DNA from: a virus
Taxonomy: Duplodnaviria > Heunggongvirae > Uroviricota > Caudoviricetes
Strand: one strand, 5' to 3'
Length of the DNA: 23,574 nucleotides
IMG/VR virus record: IMGVR_UViG_3300029843_000030
This document shows, piece by piece, positions 11,479 through 12,198 of this stretch. Position numbers and translations under genes: made by a program. The notes below the pieces were generated by a model. The model searched no databases. It was not told where the DNA came from and saw only the letters and a program-made list of their open reading frames with translations. Numbering within the stretch: the stretch's first letter is position 1; the number at the start of each line of letters is the position of its first letter.

Positions 11479-12198
11479 TTAACGAACTCTGACGACATTA
11501 ATTTCAAAGTCATCAATCTGCCCGCTATTAAGTATAACGAATGCAGAACTCCCATTACTGTACGATTTCGATAAAACCAGACGATCATCATAGCGTGCAA
11601 GAACGTAATACCAAGTATTCTCATAGTGGATCGTCTGATATTCCCTCTTAAACTGGGGTTTATACCAACCGGCAATAAGAGAGAATGTCCAGAAATAAAT
11701 CATGAATCCAGCCATAATAAACTCAATTCGGTGATGGCGAATAAAAGACACTTCCGAAAAACATTTGACTGAAATAAGTCTTCTTCCTGACCTGACAAAA
11801 AGCGTAATTGTAAAGGCAGCAATAACACAAAAAAACAGCACATCTGGCTCAACGTGCTGATGAATTACCGAAAACTCCAGAACAGGCGGAATAAAAAACA
11901 GCAATATTGCCAGAAAAAGTCTGATAAAACTCAAATTCTGTATATTGTTTTTTTGTTTTATGCCTAAAAAGAAAACAATACCTACTCCCCATCCAGTAAG
12001 GAATATAACGATAACGCTCACAGCATAAAACAAACTTCGGGCCACATCATCAACGCCAGCCCCGACGATCCACCATGGAAAGCCATAGTAAAAGGAAGTC
12101 CCCCATCCATAGAAATAAGCGCTTCCCCATCCAAGACAGCCCATATAAGCAATAAAAAGTGAAGAGTTCCTCAGCAGAGTGCTGTCATCCATACCCAT
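11479..12198 (-). CDS. Polytopic membrane protein (about 5 TM helices plus ~55-aa soluble C-terminal domain) in an AT-rich island
   Basis: 239-aa ORF, rich in F/I/Y/W, with strikingly lower GC than flanking phage genes. Probable start at the second ATG (~12192), which has better Shine-Dalgarno spacing. Lies between the tR'-like terminator and the tRNAs. Confidence 0.6.
   Translation of the reverse strand: MGMDDSTLLRNSSLFIAYMGCLGWGSAYFYGWGTSFYYGFPWWIVGAGVDDVARSLFYAVSVIVIFLTGWGVGIVFFLGIKQKNNIQNLSFIRLFLAILLFFIPPVLEFSVIHQHVEPDVLFFCVIAAFTITLFVRSGRRLISVKCFSEVSFIRHHRIEFIMAGFMIYFWTFSLIAGWYKPQFKREYQTIHYENTWYYVLARYDDRLVLSKSYSNGSSAFVILNSGQIDDFEINVVRVR

Follow-up and report, generated by a model that had tools for sequence, protein, structure and literature searches.

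Which function does a membrane protein fulfil that is encoded directly behind the antiterminator gene Q of a lambda-like prophage, and how did its AT-rich gene come to lie there? This question is raised by the viral record IMGVR_UViG_3300029843_000030 (Caudoviricetes), a stretch of 23,574 nucleotides (nt) that is referred to as the window throughout and represents a lambda-like Escherichia coli prophage read on the minus strand. An earlier note, made from the letters of the window alone, had described the gene as a recently acquired moron situated between the late terminator and the tRNA genes. Judged by sequence comparison, the open reading frame (ORF) is a member of a catalogued and widespread family of prophage cargo genes and is thus already known. 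For its role, lysogenic conversion is tentatively ranked first and superinfection exclusion second, and the roles of a lytic accessory or of a helper in toxin release are placed well below.

The family assignment is carried by several comparisons. Database entries that RefSeq names 'STM1630 family protein' are 99-100% identical to the window protein, and one IMG/VR prophage encodes a protein with 100% identity. The DNA is 99.6-99.7% identical to prophages of extraintestinal pathogenic E. coli (ExPEC, e.g. IHE3034, O18), in which the coding sequence (CDS) corresponds to WP_000342820.1, again an 'STM1630 family protein' in RefSeq. Residues 19-239 were matched to positions 1-221 of the 222 positions of PHROG 1521 (E=6.3e-86), and phmmer yielded E values between 2e-153 and 1e-60 against proteins that all have the precomputed label PF27470 'TfpB', including proteins of 97-98% identity. 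Membership in PF27470 rests on these precomputed labels, which every homologue found carries; local Pfam and NCBIfam scans of the membrane protein, run with copies that lack the PF27470 model, returned no match. Furthermore, the protein displays the traits of the family, which are a length of ~230-260 amino acids (aa), five hydrophobic helices, a C-terminal beta domain of ~55 aa and the motif A-Y-x-Y-G-W-G...Y-Y-G-x-P-W, and an alignment of 53 sequences is colinear over the full length.

The family is small, since a profile search among 1.84 billion representative proteins revealed 71 representatives at E<=0.001. A close enterobacterial group (45-98% identical) comprises Escherichia, Shigella, Salmonella, Citrobacter, Klebsiella, Enterobacter, Cronobacter and Yersinia. 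A second group, 24-32% identical, is found in Neisseria and the Pasteurellaceae (Avibacterium, Gallibacterium, Pasteurella, Actinobacillus, Mannheimia and H. ducreyi), and a distant enterobacterial group of ~15-20% identity in Klebsiella, Raoultella, Enterobacter, Mangrovibacter and Lonsdalea. All named sources are animal- or host-associated Proteobacteria. Scanning genome contigs with the close alignment gave only six loci. Within E. coli, a blastn match is present in at least 1197 of 5426 complete genomes (at least 22%), at up to four places per genome, so that the gene as such is an ordinary one, a catalogued hypothetical protein in about a fifth of the complete genomes. Among deposited phage genomes only three of 50,697 records carry it, namely those of 434 and 2B8. 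This scarcity in deposited phages, together with its frequency in E. coli genomes, agrees with the host retaining the gene more than with lytic growth depending on it.

The names in use for the family need some care. The name 'TfpB' of PF27470 presumably goes back to a TfpB ORF of Moraxella bovis and M. lacunata, where it lies in the pilin inversion region; no Moraxella member is among the family homologues found. An Acinetobacter 'TfpB' was rejected as a relative, being an unrelated PilB-like ATPase. Likewise, the label 'TciB' in the phage 434 record was discarded as a name for this gene, because it belongs to the neighbouring DUF3927 gene. The literature searched yielded nothing usable on PF27470 or the Moraxella tfpB ORF, nor on the RefSeq accessions, and on Tci names only papers on P1-type plasmid prophages.

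The membrane-protein ORF is a real gene under purifying selection and not a chance reading frame. The ratio of nonsynonymous to synonymous substitutions (dN/dS) against six alleles is 0.05-0.29 where it is computable and lowest for residues 1-80 (0.05-0.14), with synonymous sites close to saturation between alleles; those of E. coli differ at 45-84% of these sites. The 239-aa ORF at 11479-12198 on the minus strand is present as the earlier note had listed it, but its start at 12198 could not be kept: RefSeq and all homologues begin two codons later at the in-frame second ATG (12192), which yields 237 aa. The further traits named in that note were borne out. Hydropathy and an AlphaFold2 model agree on about five transmembrane (TM) helices, the soluble C-terminal domain estimated at ~55 aa appears in the model as a five-strand beta domain of 56 residues, and the claimed richness in Trp, Tyr and Phe amounts to 20.1% of the residues. 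A tR'-like terminator is indeed located upstream, as a hairpin with T-run behind a lambda-like promoter, and three tRNAs are located downstream. The calculation which the note had proposed for its claim of a low guanine-plus-cytosine (GC) content gave 39.5-39.6% for the ORF, in comparison to 48.8-49.1% for the window and 49.6% for Q. At third codon positions (GC3) the value is 0.38 versus 0.50-0.56 in Q, rusA, the DUF968 gene and the TerB gene. Since GC3 is low as well, the low GC is not merely an effect of the amino-acid composition.

The description of the gene as a moron is largely right. It occupies the slot between Q with tR' and the tRNAs, its base composition is unlike that of the flanking phage genes (39.5 versus 49.1% GC), and it is preceded by a conserved promoter-like element. 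A terminator of its own directly downstream, however, is missing: the terminator scan predicted none between the stop of the CDS (11479) and the first tRNA (11356), and the first one follows the tRNA array (Table 1). An autonomous transcript, if there is any, would therefore probably include the tRNAs. Inside the CDS, the scan marked a terminator-like hairpin with a 9-bp stem and a T-run at 11836-11859 on the minus strand, around codons 112-119. As a real terminator it was rejected and taken as a probable chance match, the coding sequence there being AT-rich and under purifying selection; it could still attenuate transcription from the gene's own promoter.

Here, the promoter-like element deserves a closer description. 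In the window it consists of a -35 hexamer TTGACT (12260-12255), an 18-nt spacer and an extended -10 TGtTATGTA (12239-12231). Of 80 IMG/VR loci, 79 contain the pattern TTGAC[TG]-N(14-20)-TGnTAnnnn, irrespective of the Q family that precedes it, and the first base of the pattern is found 67-69 nt before the start codon in 78 loci and 77 nt before it in one. Within 14 non-redundant upstream sequences TTGAC and TTTGnTAnG are invariant or nearly so and the spacer is variable. Aligned upstream regions of the window, phage 434, O157, Escherichia sp. and a plasmid of enterotoxigenic E. coli (ETEC) share the block despite unrelated DNA further upstream. This is the pattern expected of a sigma-70 promoter with an extended -10, which suggests that the element would act as a promoter.

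The late promoter upstream of it can be compared with that of lambda. Its -10 and initial transcribed sequence match lambda directly 3' of Q, where the alignment has GGTAAATTTG.CTC.AACGATGGG in common; the lambda record is without an annotation at this place, and we take the matched stretch to be pR' and the qut/pause element. From the tR'-like terminator it is 140 nt to the membrane-protein CDS, and a further 122 nt separate the CDS from the tRNA array.

The recent horizontal acquisition that had been read from the low GC could not be upheld. Across all 17 loci compared (Escherichia, Salmonella, Klebsiella, Pasteurellaceae and Neisseria), the gene has a GC content of 29-40% and falls short of its flanks by 6-25 points; the Pasteurellaceae, whose GC is low in any case, are no exception. 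In addition, the Salmonella copy is syntenic across the subspecies enterica, arizonae and diarizonae. The family-wide low GC, the synonymous divergence of the E. coli alleles and the synteny in Salmonella thus leave a recent transfer unsupported. On these comparisons, the gene has long belonged to the pool of lambdoid genes, and its AT-richness is an old trait. The low GC of this family is a persistent one, which corrects the shortcut from low GC to recent transfer. Probably the AT-richness is linked to control by H-NS, as silencing by H-NS offers a reason for it to be kept.

What is known about the expression of the family stems from the Salmonella member STM1630 (SL1344_1560). It resembles the window protein in being 48% identical over the full length (P0164), in its size of ~238 aa and in the same conserved N-terminal motif. 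The gene also has a low GC (36.7% versus 45% in the flank) and a promoter of its own with a mapped -10. In contrast to the window gene, it is chromosomal, located between steB and sseJ with no phage genes around, and the DNA upstream of it could not be aligned with the promoter-like element of E. coli.

Canals et al. 2019 (S1 Text, PMC6785131) place an H-NS binding site in the gene and report its expression in medium inducing Salmonella pathogenicity island 2 (SPI-2) as well as inside macrophages. They cite an attenuation of signature-tagged transposon mutants in calves and chicks (Morgan et al. 2004) and state that a deletion in strain 4/74 raised intramacrophage replication, and that the gene is absent from S. 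Typhi, its -10 being mutated and the promoter inactivated in all invasive strains of sequence type 313 (ST313) that were tested. Co-regulation with SPI-2 genes has been reported as well (PMC2639726). In strain SL1344, one transposon insertion site was found in the 717 bp of SL1344_1560, and sseJ and other AT-rich genes nearby are depleted likewise, which was ascribed to occlusion by H-NS (Barquist et al., PMC3632133). Canals et al. also ascribe the near absence of insertions in STM1630 to H-NS, deletions growing normally.

Within lambdoid prophages the position of the gene is stable. A Q gene on the same strand precedes it in 67 of the 80 IMG/VR loci, ending at a distance of 211-283 nt, and these Q genes belong to at least four different families. 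Seventy loci extend for at least 600 nt downstream of the gene; in 38 of these, tRNA arrays of varying composition follow, 24 of which start within ~200 nt. The ExPEC prophages contain a different array (Ile-Lys-Thr-Gly), and their 99.7% identity reaches the end of the query at 11400. Identity up to this point with different tRNAs beyond it indicates a module junction between the membrane-protein gene and the tRNAs. In phage 434, the 'putative membrane protein' CPT_434_68 is 57% identical and sits in the same slot, with Q, terminator, gene, further cargo and holin in this order and the same promoter-like element. The O157:H7 prophages are arranged likewise. Phage 434 and these prophages differ from the window in their Q, which is Q82-like, and in a DUF3927 (TciB-like) gene that follows in place of the tRNAs.

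This slot is the one in which stx genes may follow, and a protein that aids the release or export of Shiga toxin (Stx), heat-labile toxin (LT) or similar neighbouring cargo could be imagined. Indeed, strain STEC005 has the order Q, membrane-protein gene, two ORFs, tRNA Ile-Arg-Arg and stx2k, and other prophages have stx2 next to the gene. The ETEC plasmid NZ_CP122817.1 carries, 870 nt from eltA, an intact and IS-flanked (insertion sequence) member (4996-5709 of the locus) that also has the promoter-like element. This arrangement fits an origin of the LT locus from a phage late region, and in Salmonella sseJ is a direct neighbour. Nevertheless, stx2 was found within 4 kb in only three of the 80 viral loci, downstream in two (one with a 99% identical allele) and upstream in the third. 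The gene is divergent from eltAB on the ETEC plasmid, the window contains no toxin gene and no toxin lies near the orphan copies. The adjacency is explained by the common cargo slot of the phage late region, and a role in toxin release is regarded as very improbable.

Other surroundings are even more diverse. On a plasmid of the invasion type known from enteroinvasive E. coli (EIEC) and Shigella, the gene stands among IS elements, and another copy adjoins a pap-type adhesin gene. In UTI89 and relatives (SCU-112), the copy beside the iro locus, accompanied by a tRNA-Arg, is a frameshifted and N-terminally truncated pseudogene. In E. coli KE51 (NZ_CP141080.1, 2286106-2287595) a 99.6% identical gene is split in two, with an IS1-family transposase annotated under the match. 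Judged by the split copy and the pseudogenes, the gene is dispensable in some lineages. Housekeeping genes flank the solitary copies in Avibacterium, Neisseria and Pasteurella, and many Avibacterium genomes have the gene at one and the same locus. The distant subfamily in Klebsiella, Enterobacter and metagenome contigs (loci L005-L009, L027 and L028) is found in a block of SRAP (YedK-like), family gene, umuC and umuD, which in L027 and L028 follows the tail-fibre genes of a P2-like prophage. At one K. pneumoniae locus, a 495-aa reverse transcriptase and a resolvase accompany the SRAP block. The varied neighbours across loci characterize a stand-alone cargo gene without a conserved partner.

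A possible role in the lytic cycle has to be weighed against the orphan copies, which in Salmonella, Pasteurellaceae and Neisseria have no phage genes as neighbours. As the first ORF after tR' on the Q-dependent late transcript, and as a membrane protein with holin, lysozyme and Rz genes downstream on the same strand, the product might tune lysis timing or the state of the membrane in a manner like a holin or antiholin, or like lysis inhibition. However, more than 5 kb of other cargo lie between the gene and the holin, only 434 and 2B8 carry it among deposited phage genomes in which lambdoid phages are plentiful, and the gene has a promoter-like element of its own. Together with the orphan copies, this makes a lytic accessory improbable.

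For the protein itself, the Kyte-Doolittle profile displays four strong hydrophobic segments (55-79, 89-111, 118-136 and 158-178) and a weaker, aromatic one at the N-terminus. The AlphaFold2 model built from the 53-sequence alignment (predicted local distance difference test, pLDDT, 80; predicted template modelling score, pTM, 0.74) contains helices at 10-36, 47-78, 89-111, 116-135 and 155-181 as well as the beta domain at 184-235. An earlier model from 23 close homologues reached a pLDDT of 59, so that distant relatives were needed in the alignment for the better model. Counted over the 53 sequences, the mean number of Lys and Arg is 1.5 at the N-terminus, 2.7 in loop 2 and 3.2 in loop 4, compared with 0.02 in loop 1 and 0.6 in loop 3. 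By the positive-inside rule, this would place the N-terminus, loop 2 and loop 4 in the cytoplasm and loops 1 and 3 and the C-terminal beta domain in the periplasm.

Conservation is strongest in helix 1 and loop 1, with 90% column identity in the close group. This stretch, with the motif AY.YGWG..YYG.PWW, is rich in aromatic residues and glycine, contains no basic residues and is predicted to lie at the periplasmic interface; the middle third of the protein is variable. In the 53-sequence alignment, A15, A25, Y26, Y28, G31, Y35, G37, P39, P102, F167, G175 and Y195 are conserved to at least 80%, and family-wide no acidic, basic or nucleophilic residue reaches this level. With no conserved polar residue, a role in binding or packing is more likely than catalysis. 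A search with the model retrieved no fold above noise in the PDB or BFVD, and a sequence profile search of the PDB gave no match.

Phage DNA and proteins pass through the periplasm on ejection, and a conserved surface predicted to be exposed there would also suit superinfection exclusion or abortive infection, in which a membrane protein made by the lysogen blocks the entry of incoming phage DNA or kills infected cells. Such a function is in line with a single-gene cargo carried by two unrelated types of prophage, with the own promoter-like element, with the many divergent alleles, their up to four matching places per E. coli genome and the variable middle third, and with the reverse transcriptase gene near the one Klebsiella locus. 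The classical exclusion proteins SieA and SieB of P22 resemble the window protein in lifestyle only, being prophage-encoded inner-membrane proteins with own promoters in lysogens. They share no sequence relationship with it and differ in size, helix count and genome position, sieA lying near the immI region and sieB beside gene 24. The hhalign probabilities were 1.2% for SieA and 0.1% for SieB, in a comparison limited to these two that left lambda RexB, T4 Imm and HK97 gp15 outside. PADLOC-DB 2.0 gave only AbiC (E=0.0073, 13.9 bits) over residues 56-114, that is TM helices 2-3, and an identity with AbiC was rejected as noise from TM segments. The missing fold match in PDB and BFVD speaks against exclusion as well. 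Furthermore, one fixed locus across the Salmonella enterica subspecies and in many Avibacterium genomes would be unusual for defence genes with their fast turnover, and the Salmonella member is expressed on infection signals and has phenotypes in animals. An exclusion function, the role suggested in the earlier note, has no support from sequence or fold and is considered unlikely, yet it is a more serious candidate than either of the two accessory roles.

Under lysogenic conversion, the lysogen would transcribe the gene from the promoter that belongs to it. H-NS would probably keep this promoter silent until host-associated signals relieve the silencing, as in Salmonella. During lytic growth, the gene would be transcribed again by Q-antiterminated read-through. 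The conserved part around helix 1 and loop 1 and the C-terminal beta domain would both face the periplasm, and the protein may work without a partner, from the periplasmic side of the inner membrane, on a component of the envelope that these bacteria share. As the weakest step, it would affect the fitness of the lysogen in the animal host rather than virion production. The fixation of the gene in the chromosomes of Salmonella and Avibacterium and the limitation of the family to host-associated bacteria are in line with such a function.

Several points weigh against lysogenic conversion. All experimental data come from Salmonella STM1630, and the phenotypes are modest and partly taken from pooled transposon screens, in which polar effects on sseJ or steB are possible. 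Hypermotility of STM1630 was seen in one screen (PMC4219756), and STM1630 is not among the altered-motility mutants listed in the abstract of a follow-up that rebuilt the deletion (PMC4534456). The adjacency to the virulence loci eltAB, pINV (invasion plasmid), iro and pap may reflect hitch-hiking of phage remnants. The candidate -10 (TATGTA) is without the usual final T, and a consensus scan made no call there. The topology is based on the positive-inside rule and one AlphaFold2 model. Taken jointly, identity, topology and expression, which are well supported, and the weak part, function, a factor of lysogenic conversion acting at the envelope on fitness in the animal host is given somewhat less than an even chance.

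Going further, the family could represent inner-membrane effectors of a new kind, encoded by one gene, non-enzymatic and with a fold unseen in solved structures, spread by prophages among animal-associated Gram-negatives under an H-NS-silenced and infection-responsive promoter. It would then serve either as a colonisation or envelope-fitness factor at the periplasmic face or as a new block to phage entry. This proposal is doubtful. If it were true, it would explain the recurrence beside stx, LT, an SPI-2 effector and other virulence loci. Independent of this, the family is among the commonest occupants of the lambdoid slot between Q and stx, which controls Shiga-toxin expression, and it recurs beside LT genes, on the invasion plasmid of the EIEC/Shigella type and beside sseJ. 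Here, the conserved promoter-like element and the conserved surface that is predicted to face the periplasm represent concrete and testable handles.

The features of the window are collected in Table 1.

Table 1. Features of the window, listed from the immunity region toward the late end (positions in nt)
Feature	Position	Strand	Basis or remark
Cro/YdaS-like	20154-20498		immunity and replication region
YdaT-like	19745-20170		immunity and replication region
HTH_36 protein	18759-19721		immunity and replication region
DUF968 gene	13643-14692		between replication region and rusA
RusA gene	13256-13630		just before Q in transcription order
Q antiterminator, 273 aa	12438-13259	minus	Pfam PF03589 Antiterm, E=1.6e-50; directly upstream of membrane-protein gene
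pR'-like late promoter	12405-12432	minus	-35 TTGATT, 16-nt spacer with TG, -10 TAAATT
Lambda-like initial transcribed/pause sequence	12388-12404	minus	directly after pR'-like promoter
tR'-like intrinsic terminator	12332-12357	minus	7-bp GC-rich stem, 6-nt loop, T-run; terminator scan
Promoter-like element of membrane-protein gene	12231-12260	minus	conservation among upstream regions
STM1630/TfpB-family membrane-protein CDS, 237 aa	11479-12192	minus	ORF list, family matches, dN/dS
tRNA-Met(CAT), tRNA-Arg(TCG), tRNA-Arg(TCT)	11107-11356	minus	ARAGORN, Rfam
First predicted intrinsic terminator 3' of membrane-protein gene	11068-11093	minus	terminator scan; after tRNA array
74-aa and 76-aa small ORFs	10510-11017	minus	downstream of tRNA array
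TerB-family gene	9911-10414	minus	PHROG 632 'tellurite resistance'
NanS-p-type esterase, DUF1737+SASA	7789-8772	minus	late-region cargo
S21-type holin	5902-6171	minus	
Lysozyme	4765-5298	minus	
Rz	3073-3666	minus	
Antirepressor gene; small terminase subunit gene			late end of window, with lysis genes

Some of these neighbours merit a remark of their own. In its order, the array Met(CAT)-Arg(TCG)-Arg(TCT) corresponds to the Ile-Arg-Arg array located before stx2k in strain STEC005, and the CAT tRNA of the window is probably a lysidine-modified tRNA-Ile, the name that RefSeq gives to the equivalent in STEC005. At the position where stx would sit, the window contains only the 74-aa and the 76-aa ORF. 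The former matches positions 100-171 of the 291 positions of PHROG 2571 and looks like a fragment, and the latter matches PHROG 4280. Phage 434 encodes an esterase of the SASA family as well, a few genes further downstream than its membrane-protein gene.

Finally, small RNAs were identified by Rfam at both sides of the membrane-protein gene. Two copies of STnc100 (RF02076; 169.8 and 135.6 bits) are located on the minus strand at 8995-9201 and 9479-9684, between the TerB gene and the NanS-p-like esterase of the late region, and a full-length DicF antisense RNA (RF00039, 76.7 bits) is located on the plus strand at 22242-22293, near the early-left end of the prophage.

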